From the NCBI GenBank assembly GCA_947574255.1, contig CANPJT010000003.1, positions 1 through 52,315 of the forward strand: DNA of 52,315 nucleotides, read 5' to 3'. Below are positions 1 to 51,066 of this stretch, one piece after another. Source of the DNA: an uncultured Mycoplasmatota bacterium. Its GTDB lineage: Bacteria > Bacillota_I > Bacilli_A > RF39 > UBA660. The stretch's first letter is position 1; each line of letters opens with the position of its first letter. The notes under the pieces were generated by a model that was not told the DNA's origin, ran no database searches, and saw only the letters and a program-made list of their open reading frames with translations. The position numbers and the translations under genes were made by a program.

Positions 1-507
1 GCAATAGCCATCCTGGGGGGGGGGTATAATAGTATATAGGAGTTATGCCTTATATAAAGAAACAAAAAGTTATAATATACTAAGGGGAAAGATACCTAAT
101 TTTAGTAGTGGAGATATTGAATTAGCATTCACAGTAAATGGAGAAAAAACAACAGAGGCATTTCCTTTAAAATCAAGTGGATATAAAGTAAATAGTGTTG
201 TGTGTGAAAATGGAGCTACTGCTGAATTTAGTGAAGAATTATGGGGATTAGTAAACATAAGCCCCAATAATAATGTCAAAATAAAATGTAGTATTGATTT
301 TAAAAATGGAACAAATTTGATAGAATATTTAAGAAATTTAAACTCAAGTGAATTAGTAGAAGATGACTTTGGTAATTTAAGATACATTGGGAAAGATCCA
401 AACAATTATGTATCATTTAATGGGGAGTTATGGCGAATAATAGGAGTAATGAAAGATATAGAGAATCCAGATGGAACCAAAGATGATAAAGTCAAATTAA
501 TAAGAAG
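1..507. repeat. Long direct repeat, copy 1 of 2 (identical to 6012..6518; may continue left of the window)
   Basis: Line-by-line comparison shows 1..507 equals 6012..6518. The first mismatch is 508 t versus 6519 c. Confidence 0.95.
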
Positions 508-1171
508 TGAAAATATAGGCTCATTTGCATGGGCTAGTTTTTCAGCTTCAACTAGTGATTGGTCAAAAAGTAGTTTAATGAATTTTTTAAATGAGGGAGC
601 GTACTATAATAGATCTAAAGAAAATTGTCCGCAAGGATATCAAGGGACGATGGTATTATGTGATTTTACAAGTAATGGATTAACAAATGAAGCTAAAGAA
701 ATGATAAGTACCTCAGTATGGAATTTAGGTGGAACTAATGCCGTCAAGCAAAATATAAGTGAGTTTTATAAAGCGGAAAGAGGTAATCAGGTACATTTAG
801 CTTCTCATCAAAAAAAATGGATTGGGAATGTAGGGTTAATGTATCCAAGTGATTATGGATATGCAACAAGTGGTGGAGATACTACAAGTAGAAATGGGTG
901 CTTAGTAAATCTTACATTATCAGATTGGGGAAATTTTAGTGATTGTAAAGACAATAACTGGTTGTTCAGAAATAATTTAAGATGGACGTTAATGCATAAT
1001 AGTATTACTACATATGTGTATGTATACTATTTAGGATTGGAAGGAGCTATTAGTAGTAATTATCCATATGAAAATAGTTATAAAGTATGGCCAGTTGTAT
1101 ATCTTGATTCGCAATTGATAATTGATGAAGGAAATGATGGTTCAAATAGTAATCCATTTATTTTGAAATAA
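1..1171 (+). CDS. Membrane-anchored/secreted paralogous protein, copy A (5' end outside window; phase-variable candidate)
   Basis: The frame of track ORF 200..1171 stays open back to nt 26, immediately after the G10 tract. The 5' part is identical to copy B. It shares the C-terminal block WIGxVGLMYPSDYGYATxGG with copy B. Confidence 0.6.
15..24 (+). repeat. G10 homopolymer tract (slipped-strand candidate) in the 5' part of paralog A
   Basis: tcct-GGGGGGGGGG-tataat counted directly. A run of ten G is highly non-random in this AT-rich DNA. Confidence 0.95.
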
Positions 1172-1276: not shown

Positions 1277-3286
1277 ATGAAAGGTAGTTTTTATGATGTA
1301 TTAATTAATACTTTACAACAAGATTCGAGATTCATATCTAATGAAGGAATTTTATTGAAAAATAAAATCAAAGAGTATGCTTTAAAAATGGATTCATCGT
1401 TAATAGATTTATTATTTGAAAATGAAATAATCAGAGAAAAGTTTTTTAAAAAAGTAGGAGATAATTATATTTTTGATAAAGTAGAATTTAGCTGGATGAT
1501 AAATAATAAAGAGTTTCTGCCTAATAATTATACAAAATATGGTAATAAGATTCATTTAGCGACTACTAATGATGAATATTTAATGTATAAAAATGATGTT
1601 GTTTTAACATTTCCCTATAAAGATTGTTTACTAGAATTCGATTCAACAGATGAAAATGAGAAAAGAGATGAGATATTTTACAATGAATCTCTTGCAAGTG
1701 ACCAGATAGATGTTTTATTAGATCCTAAAGTTTTTACAAATATTAATTATCATACAAAAGATGGAATAAAAAAATATAATAATTTTAATCTTGAAGATAA
1801 TTTATTAATTAAAGGCAATAATTTATTAGTTTTAGCAAGTTTACTACCTGTTTATGAAGGAAAAATCAAATGTATTTATTGGGATGTCTTATATAATACC
1901 AATAGTGATTATGTTCCATACAACGATTCTTTTAAACACAGTAGTTGGCTAGTTATGATGAAAAATAGATTAGAAATAGCTAAAAAATTATTAAAACCAG
2001 ATGGTTTAATATTCATAAGTATTGATGATAATGAGCAAGCTTACTTAAGTGTTTTAATGGATGAAGTATTTGGACGTGATAATTCTTTTGATAAGGTATC
2101 TATTCAAACATCTGCATCTCAAGGGGGATTTGGGGATGTTAATCCTGGACTAATATCTAATACAGAGAATTTACTAATATATATTAAAGATAAAAATTAT
2201 AAAAAAACTTGTTTTAATGAAGATAATATGTATATAAAAAAAGATTATGATGAAAATTATAAATACATAATGACTGATTTAAAAAAGTTAGAGTATACCA
2301 ATATAACATACTTAGCATATGAGAGATTAGGAATAAAAAAACCTTATAATAATAGTACATGGCGCAAAGTAAAAGAAAAATATGGCGATGAATATAAAAA
2401 AATTCTTTATAAAGAAAAAGCTATTATTGCTCTTACTAATAAAGATTCAGTTTTTAGAACATTTAATCCTAATAAACCAGGCAATGAATTAAAAGGAGCA
2501 CTACAAAAATCATTAGAACGTAAAGATGAAATATACATTGATAAAGATTCTAAAGGTAATGAAAGATATATTTTAAATGGTGAAATTGTATTGTTTTATT
2601 CAAAAGTATTTAAAAATATTAATGGTGAATGTGTTCCAGCAAGACGTTTAACTACATTTTGGGACGATTTAGCATGGGAAGGAATAGCGCGTGAAGGAAA
2701 TGTTAAATTAAATAGAGGTAAAAAACCAGAAAAACTAATAAAAAGAATTATTGAAATAGCAACAAATAAAAATGATATCGTTTTAGATGCTTATTTAGGA
2801 AGCGGAACAACATGTGCCGTTGCTCATAAATTAGGAAGAAAATATATTGGAATTGAACAATTAGACAATCATTTTTCTAAATCGCTTAATCGAATGAAAG
2901 ATGTTATAAATGGCGAAACAAGTGGAATTTCTTCCGAAATTAATTGGTCTGGGGGAGGAACATTTTTAAGTATGGAAGTAATGAGTAATAATCAAAAATA
3001 TATTGATAAAATAACTCATGAAAAAACTAAGAAAAATATAACTAATTTATTTAATGAAATAATAAAAAATGCTTATATAAATAATATGTTAAGTATGGAT
3101 AATATTTTAAAAAGTATTGAAGAATTTAAAAAGTTAGAACTTAAAAATCAAAAGAAGTTTTTAATAAATATTTTAGATAAAAATATGCTTTATGTAAATT
3201 ATTCTGATATTGAAGATAAAGATTATCAAGTAAGTTCTGAAGATAAAAAATTTAATTATTCATTTTATGGTGATCATAATGAATAA
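1277..3286 (+). CDS. mod: Type III R-M methyltransferase subunit (Mod), beta-class amino-MTase with non-canonical motif IV
   Basis: Good RBS agaggtgg before the ATG. The motif IV region KCIYWDVLYNTNSDYVPYNDSF..WLVMMKNRLEIAKKLLKPDGLIFISIDDNE comes before motif I VLDAYLGSGTT. The gene overlaps the downstream res gene. Confidence 0.85.
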   Translation: MKGSFYDVLINTLQQDSRFISNEGILLKNKIKEYALKMDSSLIDLLFENEIIREKFFKKVGDNYIFDKVEFSWMINNKEFLPNNYTKYGNKIHLATTNDEYLMYKNDVVLTFPYKDCLLEFDSTDENEKRDEIFYNESLASDQIDVLLDPKVFTNINYHTKDGIKKYNNFNLEDNLLIKGNNLLVLASLLPVYEGKIKCIYWDVLYNTNSDYVPYNDSFKHSSWLVMMKNRLEIAKKLLKPDGLIFISIDDNEQAYLSVLMDEVFGRDNSFDKVSIQTSASQGGFGDVNPGLISNTENLLIYIKDKNYKKTCFNEDNMYIKKDYDENYKYIMTDLKKLEYTNITYLAYERLGIKKPYNNSTWRKVKEKYGDEYKKILYKEKAIIALTNKDSVFRTFNPNKPGNELKGALQKSLERKDEIYIDKDSKGNERYILNGEIVLFYSKVFKNINGECVPARRLTTFWDDLAWEGIAREGNVKLNRGKKPEKLIKRIIEIATNKNDIVLDAYLGSGTTCAVAHKLGRKYIGIEQLDNHFSKSLNRMKDVINGETSGISSEINWSGGGTFLSMEVMSNNQKYIDKITHEKTKKNITNLFNEIIKNAYINNMLSMDNILKSIEEFKKLELKNQKKFLINILDKNMLYVNYSDIEDKDYQVSSEDKKFNYSFYGDHNE

Positions 3287-5882
3287 CTATTTGTATGAAA
3301 CAATAGATACTTTAAAAAAATATACTAATATTAACATCGAACTACCTAATATTATAAAAAATAATTTAAATCAAAAATTTGAACTAAGAAAATACCAAAC
3401 TGATGCATTTAAGAATTTTATATTTTATTATACAAATGAAAATTTAAAAGAAATGCCTATTCAACTTCTTTTTCATATGGCAACAGGAAGCGGAAAAACT
3501 TTAATGATGGCTGGACTTATTTTATATTTATATCAACAAGGATATCGAAATTTTCTTTTTTTTGTAAATTCTACAACTATTCTAGAAAAAACAAAAGATA
3601 ACTTTTTAAACAAACAGTCTAGTAAATATTTGTTCAATGATTATATTGAAATTGACTCTAAAAAAATTAACGTTAGAGAAGTTACTAATTTTCAAGGAGT
3701 AAACAAAGAAGATATTAATATTTGTTTTACCACTATCCAAGGATTACATAATGACATAAGTTTTGTTAAAGAAAATAGATTATCTATAGATGATTTTAAA
3801 TTAGAAAAAACTGTATTTATTTCTGATGAAGCCCATCATATAAATGCTTTAACAAATGCTAAATTATCAAGTGAAGAAGAAGATTTAAAACACTCCTGGG
3901 AGCATACAGTTGATAATTTGTTACTTTCTACTAATAAAGAGAATATTTTATTAGAATTTACAGCTACTTGTGATTTAGATAATCCCAATATAAAAGAAAA
4001 GTATCAAAATAAAATTATTTATAATTATCCCTTAAGTCGATTTCGTGAAGATGGTTTTTCTAAAGAAGTTGATACGCTTCAAAGTAATGTTGATTTAAAA
4101 ACCAAAATGCTTCAAGCTATTCTTATTAGTCAATACCGTTTAAAACTATTTCAATTAAATAAAATTGATATAAAACCTGTTGTTTTATTTAAATCAGATA
4201 ATATTGATAATTGTAAAAAGAATTATAAAGAGTTTATAAGAATTATCAAAAATTTAACCAAGGAAGAAATATTAAAAATTAAGGAAAACTCAACAAGTAA
4301 AATTTTAGTTGATATGTTTGCCTATTTTGAAAATTTTGATATAAGTATTGATAATCTAATTAAAGAATTAAAAGATGATTTTTCAAAAGATAAATGTTTA
4401 ATAGTTAACAGTAAAGAAACTTTAGAGGATGTGCAATTAATAGTAAATTCTTTAGAAGATAAGAGCAATTTATTTCGAACAATTTTTGAAGTTAAAATGC
4501 TTGATGAAGGTTGGGATGTTTTAAATTTATTTGATATTGTTAGACTTTATGAAACACGTGATGGAAATAATGGCAAACCAGGCAAGAAAACTATTCAAGA
4601 AGCTCAGTTAATAGGTAGAGGTGCAAGATACTGCCCATTTTCTCTTAATAATGGCGAAAAAAGATTTATCAGAAAATATGATGATGATATAAAAAATCCA
4701 TTACGAATATGTGAAACATTATTATATCATTGTCAGATGGAGTCACGATATATATCTGAATTGAAAATAGCTTTAAAGGAAACAGGGATTATTCCTAAAG
4801 AAAATATTTCTGTTCAATATACTTTAAAAAATAATTTTAAAAATTCAGATTTTTATAAAAATGGTTGGATATTTAGTAATGAAAAAATGTTAAAATCCAG
4901 AGAAGAAATCAAATCAATTCCACAAAATATTAAAAATGAAATATTTGAATTTATTTATGATTTAGGGAAAACTAAACAAGAAAACCTTTTTGATGAAAAA
5001 TTAGACTATTTAAATTTAGAGGAAAACAAATTTGAAAAATCTTTTACTATTAGTTCGCTTGCTAATACTAATTATAATTTAGTTTTAAGTATTTTAAGAA
5101 AATTTAATGTTTTTAAATTTTCTAATTTAAAAACTTATTTTCCTAATTTAACTTCAACAAAAGAATTTATTACTTCCCAAAATTATTTGGGAGATATAAA
5201 ATTTATAATAAAATCTATTTATAAAGAACCAAATAATTATTTAATAAATAAAGCTCTTTACAGTATTTTTGATAAACTTAAGGATAATATAATTACATTA
5301 GAAGAAGTTTATGAAGGCTCAAATAATTTTCAAGCTAAAAGATTTAATGAAATATTTATAAATAAAATTATTAATATTACTAATCCGTATGAGGATAGTA
5401 TAGGGATATCCCAAAATATGGTTAATGATGATTCTTATAGAATGGATTTAAGTAATGAAGATTGGTATGTTTATAATGATAATTATGGGACTACAGAAGA
5501 AAAAAAATTAGTTAAGTATTTTAGTAAATTTGTTAAAGAATTAAAAGAAAAGTACGCAGAAATTTATTTAATAAGAAATGAAAGAACTTTACCAATATAT
5601 TCTTTTTCTAAAGGTGAAAGATTTGAACCAGATTTTATTTTAATTTTAGTTGATGAAAGAAACAAAAAACAATATCAAATTTTTATTGAAGCTAAAGGAA
5701 CTCATTTATTATTGCTTGATAAGAAAAAAGAAGAATTTTTATTAGAATTAAACAATAAAGCTATTTCTATAAAAAAATTTAAAGATGATTATGAATATTT
5801 TATTTTAGGTTTTCCTTTTTTTAATCAGGATAATAAAATAGCAGAATTTAATGAATATATGAAAAATATTATTAATAAATAA
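3279..5882 (+). CDS. res: Type III restriction enzyme Res subunit (SF2 helicase plus C-terminal PD-(D/E)xK nuclease)
   Basis: Walker A MATGSGKT, motif II SDEAHH, and C-terminal FEPDF..IEAKG. The ATG at 3279 has GGTGA 5 nt upstream; the in-frame ATG at 3267 has no RBS. Confidence 0.85.
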   Translation: MNNYLYETIDTLKKYTNINIELPNIIKNNLNQKFELRKYQTDAFKNFIFYYTNENLKEMPIQLLFHMATGSGKTLMMAGLILYLYQQGYRNFLFFVNSTTILEKTKDNFLNKQSSKYLFNDYIEIDSKKINVREVTNFQGVNKEDINICFTTIQGLHNDISFVKENRLSIDDFKLEKTVFISDEAHHINALTNAKLSSEEEDLKHSWEHTVDNLLLSTNKENILLEFTATCDLDNPNIKEKYQNKIIYNYPLSRFREDGFSKEVDTLQSNVDLKTKMLQAILISQYRLKLFQLNKIDIKPVVLFKSDNIDNCKKNYKEFIRIIKNLTKEEILKIKENSTSKILVDMFAYFENFDISIDNLIKELKDDFSKDKCLIVNSKETLEDVQLIVNSLEDKSNLFRTIFEVKMLDEGWDVLNLFDIVRLYETRDGNNGKPGKKTIQEAQLIGRGARYCPFSLNNGEKRFIRKYDDDIKNPLRICETLLYHCQMESRYISELKIALKETGIIPKENISVQYTLKNNFKNSDFYKNGWIFSNEKMLKSREEIKSIPQNIKNEIFEFIYDLGKTKQENLFDEKLDYLNLEENKFEKSFTISSLANTNYNLVLSILRKFNVFKFSNLKTYFPNLTSTKEFITSQNYLGDIKFIIKSIYKEPNNYLINKALYSIFDKLKDNIITLEEVYEGSNNFQAKRFNEIFINKIINITNPYEDSIGISQNMVNDDSYRMDLSNEDWYVYNDNYGTTEEKKLVKYFSKFVKELKEKYAEIYLIRNERTLPIYSFSKGERFEPDFILILVDERNKKQYQIFIEAKGTHLLLLDKKKEEFLLELNNKAISIKKFKDDYEYFILGFPFFNQDNKIAEFNEYMKNIINK

Positions 5883-5896
5883 TAAAAAAATTCTTA

Positions 5897-5925
5897 TTGT
5901 TAAGAAAGATGATAAATGATATAAT
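5897..5925 (+). promoter_or_regulatory. Sigma-A type promoter of paralog B (TTGTTA-N17-TATAAT with extended TG)
   Basis: -35 ttgtta at 5897-5902, TG at 5917-5918 and -10 tataat at 5920-5925. RBS aggaagaggga and ATG 5952 follow. Confidence 0.6.
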
Positions 5926-5951
5926 CAAAACAATAGGAAGAGGGATAAAAA

Positions 5952-7281
5952 ATGAAATTAAAAAGTTTCAAGAAAAACAAAAGATTAAAAAATACCCTCC
6001 TAGCTCTAGGGGCAATAGCCATCCTGGGGGGGGGGTATAATAGTATATAGGAGTTATGCCTTATATAAAGAAACAAAAAGTTATAATATACTAAGGGGAA
6101 AGATACCTAATTTTAGTAGTGGAGATATTGAATTAGCATTCACAGTAAATGGAGAAAAAACAACAGAGGCATTTCCTTTAAAATCAAGTGGATATAAAGT
6201 AAATAGTGTTGTGTGTGAAAATGGAGCTACTGCTGAATTTAGTGAAGAATTATGGGGATTAGTAAACATAAGCCCCAATAATAATGTCAAAATAAAATGT
6301 AGTATTGATTTTAAAAATGGAACAAATTTGATAGAATATTTAAGAAATTTAAACTCAAGTGAATTAGTAGAAGATGACTTTGGTAATTTAAGATACATTG
6401 GGAAAGATCCAAACAATTATGTATCATTTAATGGGGAGTTATGGCGAATAATAGGAGTAATGAAAGATATAGAGAATCCAGATGGAACCAAAGATGATAA
6501 AGTCAAATTAATAAGAAGCGAAAGTATTGGGAAATTTTATTGGGATAAAAAACAAATAGGAGTAGGCTCATCAACAGCTAATTGGGGAAGTAACAAATGG
6601 AATGATAGTCAATTAATGATGATGTTGAATCCGCGTGATAGAATACCAGCTAATTACACTATAGATAATGATGGATATGTTTTGGATCAAAAAGGATATA
6701 AAATATATAGAAATTCAGGAAGTTATTGGGATCGAACAACAGGTTATAGACCTGAACAAGCAACAACAAATAGTTTTACAGAAAGTTCAGTTTCTTTTAA
6801 CAGTATAGGATTGACTGCAGAAGCAAAGGAAATGATAAGTTCATCTATGTGGACTATAAATGTAAATATAAATAGTATATTAGATTTTCAAAACACTCTA
6901 ACAAAAGAATTTTATTCATATGAAGCTATTAAAAAAGAATGGATTGGAGAAGTAGGATTAATGTATCCAAGTGATTATGGATATGCAACAAATGGGGGAG
7001 AAACAACTAACAGAGAAGAATGCTTAAATTATGAACTTAGCAGTTGGTATGAAAAAGAAGATTGTTATAGCAATGATTGGTTATATAAACCACTTACTCA
7101 CCAATTTACAATGATAAGAATGGGCTCTAATAATATATTGGAAATATTTAAAGATGTGTATTATAGAGAACCAAATAATGAATATTATGTTAAGCCAGTT
7201 ATATATTTAAAATCTAATATATTAATTACAGGTGAAATTAATGGTTCAAGTACTTCACCATTTACCTTGAAAGCTGAATAA
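5952..7281 (+). CDS. Membrane-anchored/secreted paralogous protein, copy B, interrupted by a frameshift at the G10 tract (phase-variable, currently OFF)
   Basis: ATG 5952 encodes MKLKSFKKNKRLKNTLLALGAIAILGGG (basic N-terminus plus hydrophobic anchor). With 10 G it stops at 6048-6050. The +1 frame is open from 6037 to 7281, so 9 or 12 G would give one 442-aa ORF. Confidence 0.7.
6012..6518. repeat. Long direct repeat, copy 2 of 2
   Basis: Identical to 1..507. Confidence 0.95.
6026..6035 (+). repeat. G10 homopolymer tract in the 5' part of paralog B
   Basis: Counted directly. It lies 74 nt downstream of ATG 5952. Confidence 0.95.
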
Positions 7282-7296
7282 AATAAAAGTTTAATA

Positions 7297-7335
7297 AAAA
7301 ATGCTAATTTGATTTAATCTTTTTAGCATTTTTTT
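7297..7335 (+). terminator. Rho-independent terminator after paralog B
   Basis: aaaatgctaa pairs with ttagcatt, followed by ttttt. The stem sequence is related to the terminator after paralog A. Confidence 0.7.
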
Positions 7336-7413
7336 AGTAATAAATAAAAATTTTTTCTTTTAGATAAATAATTCTTTCGGATTTTATGATATACTTTTGT
7401 TAGAGGTGGAAGT

Positions 7414-7935
7414 ATGGACAAATTTATTCCCGATATTTATCAAAAAAGTATATATGATGTTGATTATAAATCATTAAAGAATCGTGGAATAAAATGTATT
7501 ATTTTTGATTTAGATAATACTATTGCTCCAGTAAATATTCCAATTCCTGATAAAGAAATAAAAGATTTGTTCTCAGATTTAGACTATTTAGGATTTAAAT
7601 TAATTATTATGTCTAATGCTAATAAATCTAGAGTAGAACCATTTAAAGAAAAATTAAATGTCGATTCTTGTTGTCTTAGTAATAAACCTTTAAAGAAAAA
7701 ATATAAGAAAATAGTTAGTATTTATGGCTTTAAAGATAATGAAATTGCATGTATTGGAGATCAGTTACTTACTGATATTTTAGGAGCTAATAAAATGGGC
7801 TTTTTAAGTATTTTAGTTAATCCTATTAGTACCATAGATTATAAAATAACTAAATTTAACCGATTAATTGAAAAAAAAATATTTAATATTTTAGCCAAAA
7901 AAAATTTATTTAAAGTAGGTAAGTATTATGAGTAG
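7414..7935 (+). CDS. yqeG: YqeG-family HAD-IIIA phosphatase
   Basis: FDLDNT (DxDxT), MSNANKSR and GDQLLTDILGANKMG motifs. RBS agaggtgg. Conserved position upstream of yqeH. Confidence 0.85.
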   Translation: MDKFIPDIYQKSIYDVDYKSLKNRGIKCIIFDLDNTIAPVNIPIPDKEIKDLFSDLDYLGFKLIIMSNANKSRVEPFKEKLNVDSCCLSNKPLKKKYKKIVSIYGFKDNEIACIGDQLLTDILGANKMGFLSILVNPISTIDYKITKFNRLIEKKIFNILAKKNLFKVGKYYE

Positions 7936-8911
7936 ATGTATAGGGTGTGGAGTAATATTACAAACAAAGAATAAAAATGATTTAGGATATATACCTAACG
8001 ATAAGTATAATAAAACAAATCTTTGCGAAAGATGTTTTCGCATTTTACATTATAATGATTTAAAATTAGTAGACTTGCCTAAAAATCAAGATGTTTTAGA
8101 CACAATTAACCAAAAAGGAAAGTTTGCATTTTTCATGTGTGATTTATTAAATATAAATACTGAAATTATAGAAAGTTATAAAAAAATAAATATATCTAAA
8201 TGCTTAATTATTAGTAAAGTAGACTTTATTCCTAAGTATATAAAGAAAGAAAATATTAAAAACTGGTTAAAAGAAGAATACGATATAAAAGAAGAAATAG
8301 TATTTATCAGTGTTATTAAAAATCAAAATACCCAAATTATTAGTTCTATTATGGAAGAAAAAAATATTAATGAAGCTTATTTAGTTGGATATACGAATTC
8401 TGGTAAAAGTTCTTTAATTAATAAATTAAATAGTGAATCAAGTATTACAACTAGTTTAGCTCCTAATACTACTATTGACTTTATTAAAATAAATCTTCAA
8501 AATAATTTAACTATTATTGATAGCCCAGGAATTCTTTATCAAGATACTATATATGATGAGAATGATATTTTATTTATAAAAAAGACAAATCCAAAAACTT
8601 TTATAAAACCTTTAACTTATCAGTTAAAAAAAGGGGCTAGTATTATAATAGAAGGCGTTCTAAGGATTGAAAATACAAGTGATAAATTTAATTTAACTAT
8701 TTATATGAGTAATTTATTAGAAATAAAAAAGGTTTATGAAAAAAATAATCAACTGAAGAATTTAGAACGAGTAAATTTGAAAATTAAAAGAAATCAGGAT
8801 TTAGTTATTAAAGGATTAGGGTTTATTACTAGTAAAAGTAGTGCTTCATTAAATATTTATTTAAAAAATAAAAATTTATTAGAAATTCGTAATTCTTTTT
8901 TTGAAAGGTAG
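7928..8911 (+). CDS. yqeH: Ribosome-biogenesis GTPase YqeH (circularly permuted GTPase with N-terminal zinc ribbon)
   Basis: CIGCG..CERCF zinc ribbon, GYTNSGKSSLIN P-loop and IIDSPG motif. Confidence 0.85.
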   Translation: MSRCIGCGVILQTKNKNDLGYIPNDKYNKTNLCERCFRILHYNDLKLVDLPKNQDVLDTINQKGKFAFFMCDLLNINTEIIESYKKINISKCLIISKVDFIPKYIKKENIKNWLKEEYDIKEEIVFISVIKNQNTQIISSIMEEKNINEAYLVGYTNSGKSSLINKLNSESSITTSLAPNTTIDFIKINLQNNLTIIDSPGILYQDTIYDENDILFIKKTNPKTFIKPLTYQLKKGASIIIEGVLRIENTSDKFNLTIYMSNLLEIKKVYEKNNQLKNLERVNLKIKRNQDLVIKGLGFITSKSSASLNIYLKNKNLLEIRNSFFER

Positions 8912-8918
8912 TAAAAAT

Positions 8919-10667
8919 ATGAGTAAAATAAAAATAATGAACGAAAATTTAGCTAATAAAATAGCGGCTGGTGAAGTAGTTGAAAAAATTTCAAGTGTAG
9001 TTAAAGAACTTGTTGAAAACAGTATCGATGCTTCTGCCAAAAGTATTGTAGTATCTTTAAGTGATGGAGGTCTTAAACAAATCCAAGTTTTAGATGATGG
9101 AGTTGGTATGGATTATAATGATGCATTACTTGCTTTTTCTAGACATGCTACTAGCAAACTTCTTCATGATGATGATTTATTCTTTATTGATACACTCGGG
9201 TTTAGAGGAGAAGCTCTTCCTTCAATTGCTAGTGTAAGTTCAGTAACTTTAAAAACCTGTAGTGGAGATATTGGAACACTTATTGAAATAAAAGGCGGAA
9301 AAATATTAAAGCAAGAAAAAACAGATGCTCGTATGGGAACATGTATTACTGTTTCAGAATTATTTTATAATACACCAGCACGATTAAAGTATTTAAAAAA
9401 TGAAAGTTATGAATTAGCCAATTGTGTTTCTTTAATCGAAAAATTAGCTTTATCACACGATAAAATATCCTTTACTCTTACTAATAATGAACGAGTTTTA
9501 GTAAAAACAACAGGGAGCGGTAACTTACATAAATGTATTCATGAAATTTATGGTTTAAATGTTTCTTCAAAAATGCTAGAAATAGAATCCAGTAATGATG
9601 ATTTTGATTTATATGGCTTTGTTTGTAAACCAGAGATACTAAAATCTAATCGTAATCATTTCATTACGATGGTAAATGATAGGGTAATTAAAAATAATGA
9701 TATTAATCGTGCTATAAATGATGCTTATTATACATATAAACCTGATACTAAGTATCCAATTATAGTTCTAAAAATAAATGCTGATCCAACACTTATTGAT
9801 GTTAATATTCATCCTACTAAACAAGATATTAAAATGTCAAAAATAAATGAATTATATGATCTTATTTATAATAATATTAAAGAGGTTTTATATAAAAGTT
9901 TGCTTATTCCCGATGCTATTAAAAAACCAGAATATAACGAAATAAAAGATCAATATATAGAAAACTTTATAAAAGAAAATAAAGAGGATGATTATTCAGG
10001 GAGTAGACAAGTTGTTATGGATCTTTCATATGCTGAAGCAGAAAAAAAAGAAGAGCCAATAGTTATTAATGAAGAACTAAAAAGGCTGGTATTATATCCA
10101 GTTGGAATAGCTCATGGAACTTACATTATCGCTCAAAACGAAGAAGGGGTATACATGATTGATCAACATGCAGCTCAAGAAAGAATAAATTATGAACGCT
10201 TTTTAAAATGTTTAAAAGAAAAAGAAATAACAACAACATCTCTTTTATTTCCAATAACGATTGAATTATCTCCTAGCGAATTTTTAAGTTTAAAAAATTA
10301 TTTAGAGATTTTATTTAAAATGGGCTTTAAAGTAGAAGAATTTGGTTTAAATACTTATATTTTTAAAGAACATCCTACTTGGTTAAAAACTGGATATGAA
10401 GAAGAATCTATTCGAAAAATCGTAGATTTAATTATTCAAAATAAAGGCGAATTTGATCCAGTTAAATTTAATGAAAACATTGCTATAACTCTAGCTTGTA
10501 AAATGAGTATAAAAGCTAATATGCGAATTAGTAATGAAGCTGCTGAAGAGTTATTACAAGAACTTGTTTTGTGTGATAATCCTTATAATTGTCCTCATGG
10601 GAGACCAACAATTATTAAATTTTCAACATATGACTTAGAAAGAATGTTTAAAAGAGTAATGAATTAA
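8919..10667 (+). CDS. mutL: DNA mismatch repair protein MutL
   Basis: N-terminal LANKIAAGEVVE, VKELVENSIDA, DDGVGM and GFRGEAL (GHKL ATPase). C-terminal QHAAQERI and CPHGRP motifs. ATG 8919 follows the yqeH stop at 8909-8911. Confidence 0.95.
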   Translation: MSKIKIMNENLANKIAAGEVVEKISSVVKELVENSIDASAKSIVVSLSDGGLKQIQVLDDGVGMDYNDALLAFSRHATSKLLHDDDLFFIDTLGFRGEALPSIASVSSVTLKTCSGDIGTLIEIKGGKILKQEKTDARMGTCITVSELFYNTPARLKYLKNESYELANCVSLIEKLALSHDKISFTLTNNERVLVKTTGSGNLHKCIHEIYGLNVSSKMLEIESSNDDFDLYGFVCKPEILKSNRNHFITMVNDRVIKNNDINRAINDAYYTYKPDTKYPIIVLKINADPTLIDVNIHPTKQDIKMSKINELYDLIYNNIKEVLYKSLLIPDAIKKPEYNEIKDQYIENFIKENKEDDYSGSRQVVMDLSYAEAEKKEEPIVINEELKRLVLYPVGIAHGTYIIAQNEEGVYMIDQHAAQERINYERFLKCLKEKEITTTSLLFPITIELSPSEFLSLKNYLEILFKMGFKVEEFGLNTYIFKEHPTWLKTGYEEESIRKIVDLIIQNKGEFDPVKFNENIAITLACKMSIKANMRISNEAAEELLQELVLCDNPYNCPHGRPTIIKFSTYDLERMFKRVMN

Positions 10668-13893: not shown

Positions 13894-15054
13894 TTATATA
13901 TATTTATCAGTTGATTGAGCTACCTCCTTTTTTATTTTTTCTGATAAATGTCCATATTTATTTATAGTAGTGTTAATACTTTGATGCCCCATACGTTTTC
14001 CAAACATATAAGCTTCTTTTCCTTCAGCCATCATTGTTGCTGCATAAGTATGTCGTAAATCATACATTCGTATTTTTGTAACATCTGCTTTTTTACAGTA
14101 GTAATGGAAATCTTTACGTAATGTTGTGTCACAAAGTGGTTTTTTTGTATCGTGGTTAAAAAAGAGAAGGGTGTTATCATTTATTTCGTAACCTAGTTCA
14201 TTTTTTAAGAATAATCTATAGTCTTCTACTGCATTAATTACTTTATCAGTTATATCTATTGTTCTTTGAGAATTATAAGTTTTAGTACTTGATAAAAAAT
14301 CATTTGATTTTCTATCATAATTTATTGAATGAAAGATGCTTAATTTTAATTTTTCTTTGTCAAACATTCCAAAAGTTAAAGCTCTAGTTTCTCCAACTCT
14401 ATCACCTGTACTAAAATTGACAATAGTTAGGGTTCTTATTCTATAAGCTTTTTTTCTTAAACTAATATTATCAGATTCTATATCCATTTCTAAAGTTTTT
14501 AAAAATTTTGTTAATTCTTCAGGAACCCAAAATTTCATTTCTTGATTTTCAACTTTATATTTTTCAATTCCTTTCATAGGGTTATTTAGAATATATTTTT
14601 CATTTTTACACCAATTAAAAAATGCTTTTAGTATTTTCATTATATGATTTTTTTGTTTTAAAGTGGTTTCTAAATCATCAATGAATTTTGTCCAAAATTC
14701 TTTATTTGTTTTGCTGACATATTTTTTGATTTTTCCTTTTAAGTATTTGTTATAATCTTTTTGTTTTCTACTGATTGTATTATAACCATATTTTTTTATA
14801 TATTTACAATCATATATATATTTATCCCATAAACTATCAAAATCGTCTTTATGAATTGCTTCGATTGCTTTTTGTTGTTTAATTGGAATATTATCACGTA
14901 TTTTAAGTGCTTCTTCAATTTTAAGAATCTTTTTATTATCTATACGACTAATGCTAGTCTTTATGGGATTACTCATCATAACTACATAATTTTTATTCTT
15001 TTTATGTCTATATATATTTTGATATCTTGTTTTTTCATAAACTTTCATGTCCAT
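13894..15054 (-). CDS. int: Tyrosine recombinase / phage integrase
   Basis: C-terminal catalytic signature DLRHTYAATMM..MGHQSINTTINKYGH. The ATG at 15054 is preceded by ggagtga; the GTG at 15063 lies inside that RBS. Confidence 0.9.
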   Translation of the reverse strand: MDMKVYEKTRYQNIYRHKKNKNYVVMMSNPIKTSISRIDNKKILKIEEALKIRDNIPIKQQKAIEAIHKDDFDSLWDKYIYDCKYIKKYGYNTISRKQKDYNKYLKGKIKKYVSKTNKEFWTKFIDDLETTLKQKNHIMKILKAFFNWCKNEKYILNNPMKGIEKYKVENQEMKFWVPEELTKFLKTLEMDIESDNISLRKKAYRIRTLTIVNFSTGDRVGETRALTFGMFDKEKLKLSIFHSINYDRKSNDFLSSTKTYNSQRTIDITDKVINAVEDYRLFLKNELGYEINDNTLLFFNHDTKKPLCDTTLRKDFHYYCKKADVTKIRMYDLRHTYAATMMAEGKEAYMFGKRMGHQSINTTINKYGHLSEKIKKEVAQSTDKYI

Positions 15055-15178
15055 AAATATCACTCCATTTCTTGAAATGGAATATAATCTATGCTATAAT
15101 TTTAGACATAGAAAAATTCCTTGTGTGCTAACATGTGTTTTTTTCTATATTTGGCTCATGTTACAGCATGAGTCTTTT

Positions 15179-29417: not shown

Positions 29418-29651
29418 ATGAGTAAATATTGTTATGGAAAAATAAGTAAATCAAATAAATGGTATGTAAGACTAAAAGAATGGAAAGGCGTATATGATAC
29501 TGAAGGAGATTTATTTCCATTTTGTAGAGTACTAAAGACATTTGATAGACCAGAAGCTTGTGTGAAGTATATTGATTATTTGAAAGAAGGAAAAGAAATA
29601 CCTAAGTTGTCCGAAAATTATATTCGTAGTATAGCTAATAACAAGGGATAG
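29418..29651 (+). CDS. Hypothetical protein
   Basis: 77-aa ORF. Its last 10 nt overlap the predicted tRNA. Confidence 0.45.
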   Translation: MSKYCYGKISKSNKWYVRLKEWKGVYDTEGDLFPFCRVLKTFDRPEACVKYIDYLKEGKEIPKLSENYIRSIANNKG

Positions 29652-29715
29652 TTTATTGGTAGAACATTAGGTTCTCAGCCTAAAGAAGGTGGTTCAAATC
29701 CATCTCCCTTAACCA
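29642..29715 (+). tRNA. Phage-encoded tRNA, anticodon CUC (Glu by anticodon), with encoded CCA
   Basis: Manual cloverleaf with acceptor 29642-29648/29705-29711, D-arm GTTT-ATTGGTA-GAAC, anticodon arm TTAGG-TTCTCAG-CCTAA and T-arm GGTGG-TTCAAAT-CCATC. U8, A14, G18G19, U33, R37, T54-C56, A58 and C61 are all present. Pair 1:72 is C-A. Confidence 0.65.
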
Positions 29716-45238: not shown

Positions 45239-46400
45239 TAATGGTCAAGTTTTTTTACCTAATAATATATTAGGTTATGAAGGAGAACATATTGCTAGAA
45301 ATATTATTATAAAAATGGATAATTTTATAGATGGTGTAGCTATTTTAGAAATAGATCCTAAAAAAGAAGAAGTAGATAAATATTTCCTAACTATGGAAAA
45401 AAAAGAAGATGCTTATGTATTACCAATTTATGAAAGCCTATTAACTGTTCAAGAATTAGGTATGCAATTAGTAATTACTGTTGATGAAGAAATAGTTTTT
45501 AAAAGTGAAGTATTTACTTTTAAAGTGGGTAATTCTATAAACGCAAAAGACAGAGAATTTTTAGAAGAATATGCATCTTATATAACTAAAATTGAAACAA
45601 AATTAACAGAAGTTAATAATGTCATAGAAGATTTAAATAAAAAAGTAGAAAATGGTTATTTTAAAGGAGAACCTGGTCCACAAGGGCCAAAAGGCGCAGA
45701 TGGTACAATGACTTTTGAAGACTTAACAGAAGAACAAAAAGCAAGTCTTAAAGGTGAAAAAGGAGATAAAGGAGACACTGGAGAAAAAGGAGAAGCTGGT
45801 TCAATCGGACCTCAAGGAGAAAGAGGTTTGCAAGGAGAACCAGGTAAAGCTTTTACTTACGAAGATTTTACAGAAGAACAGCTAACTAATTTAAAAGGAC
45901 CAAAGGGAGATATAGGCCCAAAAGGTGCAGATGGAGAAAAGGGTCTAAAAGGAGATCCTTTTTTATATGAAGATTTCACTCCAGAGCAACTAGAAGCATT
46001 AAGAGGCCCTCAAGGTATCCAAGGAGTGCCAGGACAAGATGGTAAAGATGGAACAAATGGAATTGATGGACAAAATGGAACAGATGGGGAAGATGGAGCA
46101 ACGTTTACACCTTCAGTAGATGAAAATGGAAATCTTTCATGGACAAACGATAAAGGGTTAGAAAATCCGACTTCTGTAAATATAAAAGGACCGAAAGGTG
46201 ACAAAGGTGAACAAGGTATTCAAGGAATACAAGGACCTAAGGGAGATACTGGAGAGCAAGGACCACAAGGGTCAAAAGGTAATGATGGACAAGATGGAGT
46301 AGTGGATTATGCTCAAGTAAATGCTTATATAGATGGCAAAATAGGAGATATAAATACAATTCTTGCAACATTAACAACAGTAAGTGAGGTGTCTGAATAA
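45210..46400 (+). CDS. Collagen-like (G-X-Y) repeat tail fibre/baseplate protein
   Basis: Runs such as GEPGPQGPKGADG, GEKGDKGDTGEKGEAGSIGPQGERGLQGEPG and GPKGDKGEQGIQGIQGPKGDTGEQGPQGSKGNDGQDG. They are interrupted three times by (F/Y)EDFTxEQLxxLKG modules. Confidence 0.75.
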   Translation: MKDVLVRIYNNGQVFLPNNILGYEGEHIARNIIIKMDNFIDGVAILEIDPKKEEVDKYFLTMEKKEDAYVLPIYESLLTVQELGMQLVITVDEEIVFKSEVFTFKVGNSINAKDREFLEEYASYITKIETKLTEVNNVIEDLNKKVENGYFKGEPGPQGPKGADGTMTFEDLTEEQKASLKGEKGDKGDTGEKGEAGSIGPQGERGLQGEPGKAFTYEDFTEEQLTNLKGPKGDIGPKGADGEKGLKGDPFLYEDFTPEQLEALRGPQGIQGVPGQDGKDGTNGIDGQNGTDGEDGATFTPSVDENGNLSWTNDKGLENPTSVNIKGPKGDKGEQGIQGIQGPKGDTGEQGPQGSKGNDGQDGVVDYAQVNAYIDGKIGDINTILATLTTVSEVSE

Positions 46401-47224
46401 TGGCAACAACAGCAGAATATTTAACGCAATTACAAACTGATAAACAAAGTTTTATAACTAAATTAAGTGAAAAAGGTGTTGAAGTTACAGGGAATGAAAC
46501 TTTTACTGAATTGGTTCCAAAGTTCGATGAAATACAAGGTGGTTCTACTGGAGATGATTATTTTGTTTCTCCTATTGTTAATAAATCAACAATAACAAAA
46601 AGTATAAAAACAATACCACAACTAAATCTGAGTAATGTAAATAATATGGATAGTTTTTTTAGTGGATGTATAAATCTAATATCTATACCGCAGTTAGATA
46701 CAAGTAAGGTTACTAGCATGAATAGTACTTTTGGTGGTTGTACTAGTTTAACAACAATACCATTATTAGATACAAGTAAGATTATAAATATGCCTTTTAC
46801 ATTCCAAAATTGCACTAATTTAACATCTATACCACAATTAAATACGAGCAATGTAACTAATATTAATCAAACTTTTAGTGGTTGCACTAATTTAATAACA
46901 ATACCACAATTAAACGGAAGCAAAATAAATAATAAAAATGAAACTTTCTACCGTTGTAACAATTTAACGAATTTTGGCGGTTTAACTAATTTAGGACAAG
47001 CATACTCAACCACTCAAAGTGCAAATTATAATTATTATACATTAGATCTTAATTATTCCTCAAAATTAACACATGAAAGTTTAATGAATGCAATTAATAA
47101 TTTGTATGATATAGCAACTAAAGGTTGTAATGTTCAACAATTATATATCGGAACAACGAATAAAGCAAAACTAACAGCAGAAGAAATCAGTATTGCGACA
47201 TCCAAAGGTTGGTCTGTAAGTTAG
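46400..47224 (+). CDS. Receptor-binding protein candidate with DUF285/BspA-type leucine-rich repeats
   Basis: About four full repeats of about 23 aa plus partial units: FSGCINLISIPQLDTSKVTSMNS / TFGGCTSLTTIPLLDTSKIINMPF / TFQNCTNLTSIPQLNTSNVTNINQ / TFSGCTNLITIPQLNGSKI. Confidence 0.65.
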   Translation: MATTAEYLTQLQTDKQSFITKLSEKGVEVTGNETFTELVPKFDEIQGGSTGDDYFVSPIVNKSTITKSIKTIPQLNLSNVNNMDSFFSGCINLISIPQLDTSKVTSMNSTFGGCTSLTTIPLLDTSKIINMPFTFQNCTNLTSIPQLNTSNVTNINQTFSGCTNLITIPQLNGSKINNKNETFYRCNNLTNFGGLTNLGQAYSTTQSANYNYYTLDLNYSSKLTHESLMNAINNLYDIATKGCNVQQLYIGTTNKAKLTAEEISIATSKGWSVS

Positions 47225-48858: not shown

Positions 48859-49671
48859 ATGAGTAAAAAAACTGATTTTGTAAATATAGCATTAAAAGAG
48901 GTAGGCTATAAAGAAGGAACAAACAACAATAATAAATATGGATCATATTTTAAAATGAATAATGTAGCATGGTGTGCTTTATTTGTATCATGGTGTGCAA
49001 GACAAGCGGGTATAGGAACAGATGTCATTCCTACATATAGTGGATGTGGTACAGGATATAACTTTTTTAAGAATAAAGGAAGAATACACAATAACCCTCA
49101 AGTAGGCGATATTGTGTTTTTTAAGCCAACAATAAAAGGAGCTACAAGTAGTCATACAGGAATAGTAGTTGAAGTAACTAGTACATCAGTTATAACTGTT
49201 GAAGGAAATGCAAGTTCTAAAACAGATGGTGTATATAAGCAAACTTATAAAAAGGGATATAGTAAATTTCTAGGATTTGGACGTCCAAATTTTGGAGATG
49301 AACCCGTTATAATTACTTATCAATCCTATGATAATAAAAAGAAAAAATGGCTTCCAAATGTTAAAGTAAATACAAATGACTATGCTGGTAACTTTAATAA
49401 TGCTATTAGTGCAATTTATATCGATAATTTAAAGTATAGAGTACATGACAAAGTAAAAGGTTATTGGCTTCCATTTGTAACAGGAAGAAAAGATTATGCT
49501 GGTAATTTGGGACATGCAATAGATGGTATTCAAATTGAAAATGCAACTTATAGAGTTCATATTAAAAATGGTTCTTGGTTAAGCTGGGTGTCTAAAGTGG
49601 ACAATACAGCAAATGGGTATGCTGGTATATATGGAAAAGAGATAGATGCAATACAAATAAAGATAGGATAA
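48859..49671 (+). CDS. Endolysin: N-terminal CHAP domain plus three ChW-like cell-wall-binding repeats
   Basis: NVAWCALFVSWC (catalytic Cys context), GDIVFF, SHTGIVVEV and TVEGN. Three C-terminal repeats read DYAGNxxxAIxxIxIxNxxYRVH. Confidence 0.8.
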   Translation: MSKKTDFVNIALKEVGYKEGTNNNNKYGSYFKMNNVAWCALFVSWCARQAGIGTDVIPTYSGCGTGYNFFKNKGRIHNNPQVGDIVFFKPTIKGATSSHTGIVVEVTSTSVITVEGNASSKTDGVYKQTYKKGYSKFLGFGRPNFGDEPVIITYQSYDNKKKKWLPNVKVNTNDYAGNFNNAISAIYIDNLKYRVHDKVKGYWLPFVTGRKDYAGNLGHAIDGIQIENATYRVHIKNGSWLSWVSKVDNTANGYAGIYGKEIDAIQIKIG

Positions 49672-50404: not shown

Positions 50405-50463
50405 AATACTTATAATTTAAAAAAATTAATATATATTAATAAACAAGTGAGGTGAAAATTTTC

Positions 50464-50491
50464 TTGACAACAATTAAAAAAATAGTACAAT
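50464..50491 (+). promoter_or_regulatory. Sigma-A promoter (TTGACA-N16-TACAAT) of the PanA-like operon
   Basis: ttgaca at 50464-50469 and tacaat at 50486-50491. It lies inside the track ORF that starts at 50452, so that start is unlikely. Confidence 0.65.
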
Positions 50492-50556
50492 ATTTTCACG
50501 ACTTATGGTATTCTATATTTAGAATAAAGAAGATAGATGAGGTTAGAGGTTTAAAA

Positions 50557-51066
50557 ATGAAAAAGATGGGAAAAGAGGATAGAAAAGGAATTTTAAATAC
50601 AAAAGACTTTGCATGTTATATAAAAACTAGATATAAAGAAAAGTATATTAATGACATTTCACCAATAAAATTGCAAAAATCATTATATTTTTGTTTCGCA
50701 CATTGGGGTGGATTTGTAAATAAAAGCAAAAATACAGAAGAAGAAATAAATCAAAGTCCATATTTGTTTGATGAAACATTTAAAGCCTGGTCATATGGTC
50801 CAGTTGTACCTAATATATATCATGAAGAGCAAGAGGGGAATTTAACTAAAAAAGTAACAGAAGACGAAATATTTGGGAACAATCATATTTTAAAAGAAAC
50901 AATTAATTCTTTGCTTGACGACTTATTTGAAATAAGTGACTTTAAATTAGTTAATTTATCTCATGCAGATAAATGTTGGCAAAATAACTTTGATCCAAAT
51001 GCGAAAAAACATGAAAAAAAGATAGATTGTAAAGATATTATTTATGAATATTCATACAAATACTAG
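50557..51066 (+). CDS. Panacea-domain (DUF4065, SocA/PanA-like) antitoxin candidate
   Basis: ISPIKLQKSLYFCFAHWGG..FKAWSYGPVVPNIY matches the DUF4065 core (KLQKLLYf..W.yGPV.p.vY). ATG 50557 follows gaggttagagg. Confidence 0.65.
   Translation: MKKMGKEDRKGILNTKDFACYIKTRYKEKYINDISPIKLQKSLYFCFAHWGGFVNKSKNTEEEINQSPYLFDETFKAWSYGPVVPNIYHEEQEGNLTKKVTEDEIFGNNHILKETINSLLDDLFEISDFKLVNLSHADKCWQNNFDPNAKKHEKKIDCKDIIYEYSYKY

Follow-up and report, generated by a model that had tools for sequence, protein, structure and literature searches.

Phase variation through homopolymeric tracts is textbook knowledge for Campylobacter, Helicobacter, Neisseria, Haemophilus and Mycoplasma. Among the mycoplasmas, Vaa of M. 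hominis carries a poly-A tract in its 5' coding region, and Vlp of M. hyorhinis has one in its promoter. Contingency loci with poly-G/C tracts, e.g. HmbR and Cj1295, have been the subject of reviews and studies in Campylobacter jejuni, Helicobacter and Neisseria/Haemophilus (PMC8355987, PMC3786947, PMC2823697). Here, we report on a contig of 52,315 bp with a GC content of about 25% from an uncultured Mycoplasmatota bacterium of the RF39 lineage (CANPJT010000003.1; the whole stretch is referred to as the window), which contains two paralogous genes, copies A and B, with ten consecutive G residues in their 5' regions. An original prediction had taken these runs for a poly-G contingency switch with both copies at an OFF length, and the frame arithmetic as well as the tract lengths in related assemblies support this proposal. 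We consider it quite probable that slipped-strand changes in the poly-G tract switch each of the paralogs ON and OFF independently.

The arrangement resembles the described poly-G/C contingency loci in its 8–11 G residues within the 5' coding region, its low-GC genome background and the effect of a single G as a toggle, and also in the occurrence of several loci per genome with improbable yet conserved tracts of strain-variable length. It differs in its host, which is an uncultured member of the gut Bacilli and of a Gram-positive lineage rather than a proteobacterium or campylobacterium, and which has MutL. Moreover, the tracts belong to paralogs of a single family behind one 5' cassette, whereas the described loci are a mixture of glycosyltransferases, receptors and restriction-modification (R-M) genes, and switching is predicted here from sequence comparison. 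Common ground with the variable surface proteins of Mycoplasma includes the AT-rich, reduced genome of the same broad lineage, the organisation as a multigene family whose conserved 5' part (promoter and membrane targeting) precedes divergent bodies, and a homopolymer that would switch each copy independently, most copies being silent. Unlike those proteins, copies A and B are not lipoproteins, they use poly-G instead of poly-A and have globular DUF6273-like instead of repetitive bodies, and their host is probably walled. A full-text literature search for RF39 together with phase variation or homopolymers returned nothing, and a search for poly-G phase variation in gut metagenomes turned up only work on known pathogens. 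The mechanism is well known. As far as these searches show, it has not been described for this gene family or this host lineage, nor has a 5' cassette that is common to many paralogs.

Tracts and reading frames of copies A and B

The elements of the two copies are located as follows.

5897–5925, forward strand: promoter of copy B, consisting of the −35 element TTGTTA (5897–5902), a 17-nt spacer and the extended −10 element TGaTATAAT (5917–5925); best consensus match within 5600–7500
5936–5944, forward strand: ribosome-binding site (RBS) of copy B, GGAAGAGGG, 7 nt 5' of ATG 5952, read from the sequence; AGAGGG is invariant in the cassette alignment
5952–6050, forward strand: OFF-state frame of copy B, 32 codons (MKLKSFKKNKRLKNTLLALGAIAILGGGYNSI) ending with TAG at 6048–6050, from translations at G8 to G13
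6026–6035, forward strand: poly-G tract of copy B, G10 (OFF), the proposed slipped-strand switch; 8 to 11 G in homologous cassettes
6037–7281, forward strand: body of copy B in the +1 frame, an open frame of 414 codons and a stop (7279–7281)
15–24, forward strand: poly-G tract of copy A, likewise G10; only 14 nt of the contig precede it, and the start codon lies outside the window
26–1171, forward strand: body of copy A, 381 codons and a stop; a tract of G9 or G12 would bring it into frame with the cassette

Both G10 tracts and the promoter, RBS and ATG of copy B had been named in the original prediction, and all of them are present. The tract of copy B starts 74 nt after the ATG, and the OFF-state frame encodes a cytoplasmic N-terminus rich in lysine and arginine followed by the first half of a membrane anchor. 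Translation of copy B with different tract lengths gave full-length products of 442 amino acids with G9 and 443 with G12; the original prediction had correctly named these two lengths as the joining ones and was right on the size for G9, whereas its 442 amino acids do not apply to G12. The lengths G8, G10, G11 and G13 yield only 28 to 33 codons. As had been predicted, the frame with G10 ends after 32 codons, and that with G11 runs into TAA, namely after 29 codons. The +1 frame is indeed open from 6037 to 7281 as claimed, but it is already open from 6019, directly after a TAG at 6016–6018. Both copies have a homopolymer longer than about 8 nt inside the 5' coding region, and in copy B a change by one G toggles between the full-length and the truncated product; this frame logic can be read directly from the sequence.

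The tracts exceed chance expectation. Besides the two G10 tracts, the 52-kb contig contains no G or C run of 6 nt or more, and about 5 × 10−4 runs of G10 or longer are expected from its composition versus two seen, although these are not independent, as both lie in one duplicated segment. The motif LGGG at the tract is spelled CTG GGG GGG GGG, where CTG makes up 1.3% of the leucine codons and GGG 9% of the glycine codons, and the tract is kept against both composition and codon preference. A third copy of the 5' cassette was not found in the window.

According to the proposed mechanism, slipped-strand mispairing at replication would add or remove one G. Tracts of 9 or 12 G would fuse the anchor to the ectodomain (ON), and other lengths would stop translation 2 to 4 codons past the tract (OFF). 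Each paralog would be headed by the same cassette, made up of an extended −10 promoter, an RBS, the ATG, 74 nt coding for the anchor and the poly-G tract within the anchor. With G10 in both window copies, one G too many, most of the sampled population would make neither protein.

Tract lengths in related gut bacteria

A genome scan recovered relatives of the two copies only from uncultured gut metagenome-assembled genomes (MAGs) labelled Bacilli, Tenericutes or Firmicutes. The closest genome is the mouse-gut MAG MGBC109233 with at least 14 loci; the rabbit MAG Lapin-027 bin76 contains about 20, and the other relatives come from human MAGs (UMGS735, Hadza MAGs and Mycoplasma sp. CAG:956) and one sheep-rumen MAG (L057). 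Our alignment comprised nine 5' regions, taken from the window, from the mouse MAG and from two mouse-gut assemblies in ENA. Between the −10 element and the tract, these cassettes line up with no indel. All nine share TGnTATAAT, AGAGGG, the ATG and the G run, while synonymous sites around the tract vary, so that the tract is conserved at the nucleotide level. The distance from ATG to tract was 74 nt in all seven cassettes in which it was measured. The paralogs differ in tract length, with 8 G in L007, 9 in L001, 10 in the window, L003, L058, L060 and L097, and 11 in L096; L095 likewise has 10 G, but a T>G exchange of the next base brings it into frame (ON). The two in-frame genes L001 and L095 encode full-length proteins of 422 (P0007) and 405 amino acids (P0010), respectively. 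The survey leaves out P0002, P0008 and P0018, which are apparently OFF relatives. Across paralogs and strains, the conserved tract is 8, 9, 10 or 11 G long.

The same alignment bears on copy A, whose start codon lies beyond the contig edge. Because the distance from ATG to tract is the same in every cassette measured, because no indel separates the two in the nine aligned cassettes, and because the syntenic ortholog L104 with a complete cassette also has G10, we infer, as the original prediction did, that copy A is in the OFF state, and we regard this as sound.

A difference at one and the same locus was found upstream of dnaE in related assemblies. Here, a truncated protein of 342 amino acids (P0023) is encoded on six contigs from different assemblies, and the tract is G10 in all five contigs that include it (L098 to L102), in which only the 342-amino-acid protein was called. 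A protein of 398 amino acids in the 90% cluster of P0023 (P0121) is exactly the read-through product, and its contig (L105) has G9. Over 2,745 nt, the single G of the tract is the only difference between the contigs L102 and L105, and three substitutions separate L105 from L098, L100 and L101. ON and OFF states of one locus therefore occur in nearly identical strains, as the original prediction had proposed to look for by comparing isolates, although at a paralogous locus in relatives and not at the two loci of the window.

These lengths also bear on the explanation that the G10 calls are homopolymer errors, with a true tract of G9 in both copies and both genes ON. Homopolymers are error-prone, the copies are identical around the tract, so that reads are locally indistinguishable over the 507-nt repeat, and the contig breaks inside this repeat. 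Nevertheless, homologous tracts range from G8 to G11 in independent assemblies of several projects, most of them out of frame, and a uniform error would not yield different lengths at different paralogs of one MAG. The conservation of the tract at the nucleotide level would need explaining even if the call in the window was wrong. We consider such a miscall quite improbable.

A second, apparently independent case of a poly-G switch is suggested by the rabbit MAG. Its cassette reads ATGAATCATAATGTAAATC, then G(n), then TATTTTAATAAA, with the tract 19 nt after the ATG, and its 20 tracts (within L008–L052, e.g. L010:2460–2487 and L023:2777–2870) comprise 17 of G9, which are out of frame (OFF), and three of G8, which are in frame (ON). 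About half of these tracts head a short open reading frame (ORF) of about 26 codons, which ends in a TAG that overlaps the start codon (ATG) of the main gene (ATGAGTAG), with AGGTGA upstream; in those paralogs, the tract may tune translational coupling instead of acting as a strict ON/OFF switch. Members of the family from human-gut MAGs (UMGS735, CAG:956, Hadza) showed no G or C run of 8 nt or more at their 5' ends (L009, L013, L015, L016, L019, L020, L022, L025, L028, L029 and others), other types of repeats not having been searched for, and the poly-G switch seems to be confined to the rodent and rabbit lineages. A scan of Joint Genome Institute (JGI) metagenomes with the pattern AMYAGCYMTMCTGGGGGGG returned 34 loci, all unrelated and mostly from high-GC environmental samples, and was uninformative on tract lengths.

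The rabbit paralogs with a poly-G tract in a short upstream ORF overlapping the start of the main gene (L023) lend some colour to the notion that the ectodomain is made from its own start codon, the short upstream ORF being a separate leader, and gene callers indeed choose GTG 6211 as the start of copy B. This GTG has no Shine-Dalgarno sequence, and a start there would lose the anchor and half of the first β-sandwich. The downstream frame of copy B contains no in-frame ATG, GTG or TTG between 6019 and 6210, and the full-length homologs P0007, P0010 and P0121 run straight across the tract. An independent downstream start, which the original prediction had named as a finding that would defeat it, is therefore extremely improbable.

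Several points weigh against phase variation as the explanation. The tract lengths were read from consensus assemblies only and not from reads or cultures. Five of the six assemblies with the dnaE locus share G10, and the look-up by the truncated protein retrieves OFF contigs only, which makes this a biased sample; in addition, some of these assemblies may be derived from one public mouse-gut data set, and the G9/G10 difference could then come partly from the way assemblers handle a mixed or noisy homopolymer. The assembled tracts are skewed to one G above the ON length, with about 24 such loci versus two one G below an ON length (G8 and G11) and about six ON. This skew is present in two lineages with different modal lengths (G10 with an ON length of 9, and G9 with an ON length of 8) and is not predicted by simple drift; it may stem from slippage biased towards insertion, from leaky +1 decoding or from a bias of the assemblers. 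Decay of OFF copies does occur: the mouse MAG locus L003 (L003:3009–4170), with G10 and two nonsense codons (TGG to TAG and CAA to TAA), is a true pseudogene. Finally, MutL is encoded at 8901–10667 and mismatch repair is probably present, so the tract would switch in a probably repair-proficient background as in Neisseria and Haemophilus, and switching rates may be lower than in the repair-deficient Campylobacter or Helicobacter.

The skew also leads to the alternative that G10, the ON+1 length, is itself the normal functional state and still yields some full-length protein, either because ribosomes slip by +1 on the rare GGG codons or because RNA polymerase slips in the G run. The accumulation of tracts at exactly ON+1 in two lineages would fit this idea, as would the rarity of GGG in this genome and the ability of tRNA-Gly to re-pair perfectly one base further on within the G run. 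However, alleles with G8, G9 and G11 exist, and the reading frame is perfectly continuous with G9 and, in the rabbit lineage, with G8, so that there is no single programmed length. A +1 signal of the prfB type would consist of a slippery P-site codon followed by a stop or hungry codon and preceded at fixed spacing by an SD-like element. Apart from the G run, nothing slippery of this kind is recognisable: UAU AAU AGU AUA UAG follows the tract, and no tRNA can re-pair in the +1 frame at the stop. Transcriptional slippage in bacteria is documented mainly for A or T runs, which counts against the second variant. Taken together, recoding appears improbable.

If the copies were permanently frameshifted pseudogenes without useful reversible switching, the prevalence of OFF states among the relatives and the two nonsense codons of L003 would be readily understood. 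On the other side, the downstream frames of OFF copies are open for 370 to 552 codons (381 and 414 in copies A and B), although about 10% of random codons would be stops here, which argues for purifying selection and hence for periodic expression. Promoter, RBS and tract are conserved across the paralogs, the tract against codon preference, and ON alleles exist (G9 in L001 and L105). We therefore regard dead genes as a highly unlikely explanation and retain slipped-strand phase variation as the preferred reading, under which slippage within a lineage would be frequent and reversible.

Predicted nature of the proteins

The read-through product of copy B with G9 begins with MKLKSFKKNKRLKN-TLLALGAIAILGGGIIVYRSYALY-KETK..., i.e. 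a positively charged N-terminus followed by a hydrophobic helix. Because the fused sequence LLALGAIAILGGGIIVYRSYALY forms a single continuous hydrophobic helix after KKNKRLKN, with the rest of the anchor encoded in the body of copy B (IIVYRSYALY), the tract falls midway along a signal anchor. This N-terminus looks like an uncleaved signal anchor, and the reconstructed protein is free of cysteine up to residue 87. A lipoprotein of the Mycoplasma type was considered and rejected, as there is no lipobox cysteine and the first cysteine occurs near residue 88.

The AlphaFold model of the 414-residue body reached a mean predicted local distance difference test score (pLDDT) of 87 and a predicted template modelling score (pTM) of 0.81. 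The predicted fold consists of an Ig-like β-sandwich at about residues 31–94 and a large α/β domain at residues 110–414, and the conserved cysteines C60, C88, C329 and C343 fit an extracellular protein. Neither copy matched a Pfam family at E ≤ 0.1 or an NCBIfam model, and the gathering threshold of DUF6273 (PF19789) was not reached; weak DUF6273 matches were present in 17 of 44 family members, with a best E of 1.2 × 10−4. In the PDB, profile searches gave nothing significant and Foldseek gave no match at E < 1. Against BFVD, a collection of predicted viral structures, Foldseek returned eight matches at E ≤ 0.001, four of them DUF6273 proteins of gut phages (E 4.5 × 10−5 to 7.9 × 10−4, probability of about 1, but low TM-scores of 0.24 to 0.36), and a protein annotated as receptor-binding protein matched more weakly (E 1.2 × 10−2). 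DUF6273 has been described as a C-type-lectin-like domain, which is a target of diversity-generating retroelements in receptor-binding proteins of phages (PMC10743442) and also represents the N-terminal domain of an immunoglobulin A (IgA) protease from the gut bacterium Thomasclavelia (PMC12402451).

We propose from the model that copies A and B are type-II membrane-anchored proteins with one transmembrane helix and an extracellular, cysteine-containing domain remotely like DUF6273; anchor and conserved cysteines point to exposure on the cell surface. The large C-terminal domain of the model gives significant Foldseek matches to predicted DUF6273 phage proteins, although at low TM-scores; both occur in gut bacteria and their phages, and both would be subject to a variation mechanism, which in our case is an ON/OFF frameshift combined with paralog diversity and not the targeted hypermutation of a binding loop. 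The family has at least 3,400 database members, all of them unnamed, and probably represents anchored ligand-binding surface proteins, with ligands presumably bound by the ectodomain.

The family evolves, or is exchanged, much faster than the genes next to it. At locus L006 of the mouse MAG, a syntenic paralog is followed by Mod and Res proteins that are 88% and 90% identical to those of the window (L006:1049–3935 versus window 1277–5882), while the paralog itself (L006:2–937) shares 52% identity with copy A (window 26–1171), a contrast that fits a surface protein subject to diversifying pressure.

Neighbouring genes and possible biological meaning

Two further features of the locus are located as follows.

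1–507, forward strand: segment 100% identical to 6012–6518 (507 nt); copies A and B form direct repeats around Type III R-M genes
1277–5882, forward strand: Type III R-M system with mod (1277–3286) and res (3267–5882); Pfam N6_N4_Mtase and TypeIII_RM_meth, and ResIII; both genes are free of simple repeats

Past the 507-nt block, copies A and B diverge abruptly to 37% amino acid identity, and the identical block with its abrupt breakpoint suggests recent gene conversion. If the direct repeats recombined, the R-M system would be lost and the two copies joined into a chimeric gene. The contig starts inside the repeat and many contigs of relatives also end inside genes of this family, so the cassette probably breaks assemblies. 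At the dnaE locus, L105:1–1409, L098:1–1240 and L099:1–1241 show three wholly different upstream neighbourhoods for the same gene and dnaE, with identity beginning about 90 nt 5' of the ATG, at the edge of the cassette; these are either real rearrangements at cassettes or chimeric metagenome joins.

The R-M system next door and the prophage, both mentioned in the original prediction, are real, and nothing functionally ties either of them to the two paralogs. A phasevarion, i.e. a phase-variable Type III mod gene, was considered and rejected, as the repeats sit in the flanking paralogs and mod (1277–3286) contains no G or C run and no tandem repeat. An alternative genetic code with TGA for tryptophan was likewise rejected as the cause of the broken frames: TGA ends two of 19 long ORFs, the stops in L003 are TAG and TAA, and the code is the standard bacterial one.

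The prophage extends from an integrase (13894–15063, minus strand) to an endolysin (48859–49671) and also encodes a large terminase, a portal, a major head protein, a tape measure protein and a tail fibre with collagen-like repeats; a tRNA-Glu(CTC) lies within it at 29642–29715. The endolysin suggests that the host is probably surrounded by a cell wall. A gene of the tail region (46400–47224) contains five tandem repeats of 72 nt (24 amino acids) at 46594–46953, matches Pfam DUF285 and probably codes for a repeat-containing host-recognition protein. Just past the lysis gene of the prophage, the ORF at 50452–51066 encodes a SocA/Panacea antitoxin domain and may belong to a pair of genes for a toxin-antitoxin or defence function.

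Because of the identical 507-nt block, the contigs breaking at cassettes and the differing upstream neighbours, recombination at the cassette may form a second layer of variation. A wider picture, which we offer only tentatively, is that of combinatorial surface variation in gut Bacilli with reduced genomes. In this scheme, 10 to more than 20 lectin-like paralogs would stand behind a portable cassette, most of them one G from ON, with cassette recombination shuffling the bodies and possibly excising the Type III R-M system, and the ON+1 "off" state would possibly be leaky by +1 decoding. The variation could serve to evade pressure from the host or from phages, such as host IgA; variation of a phage receptor is one use that the switch may have.

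If the switch is real, abundant commensals would vary their surface stochastically and paralog by paralog, which bears on IgA coating, phage sensitivity and the persistence of strains in the gut. In that case, gene callers and MAG catalogues would also systematically mis-annotate the family as N-terminally truncated cytoplasmic proteins, and many of the closest database entries do start at an internal GTG. A family of at least 3,400 proteins would thereby gain its first functional handle, as that of an anchored, probably ligand-binding and variable surface protein.

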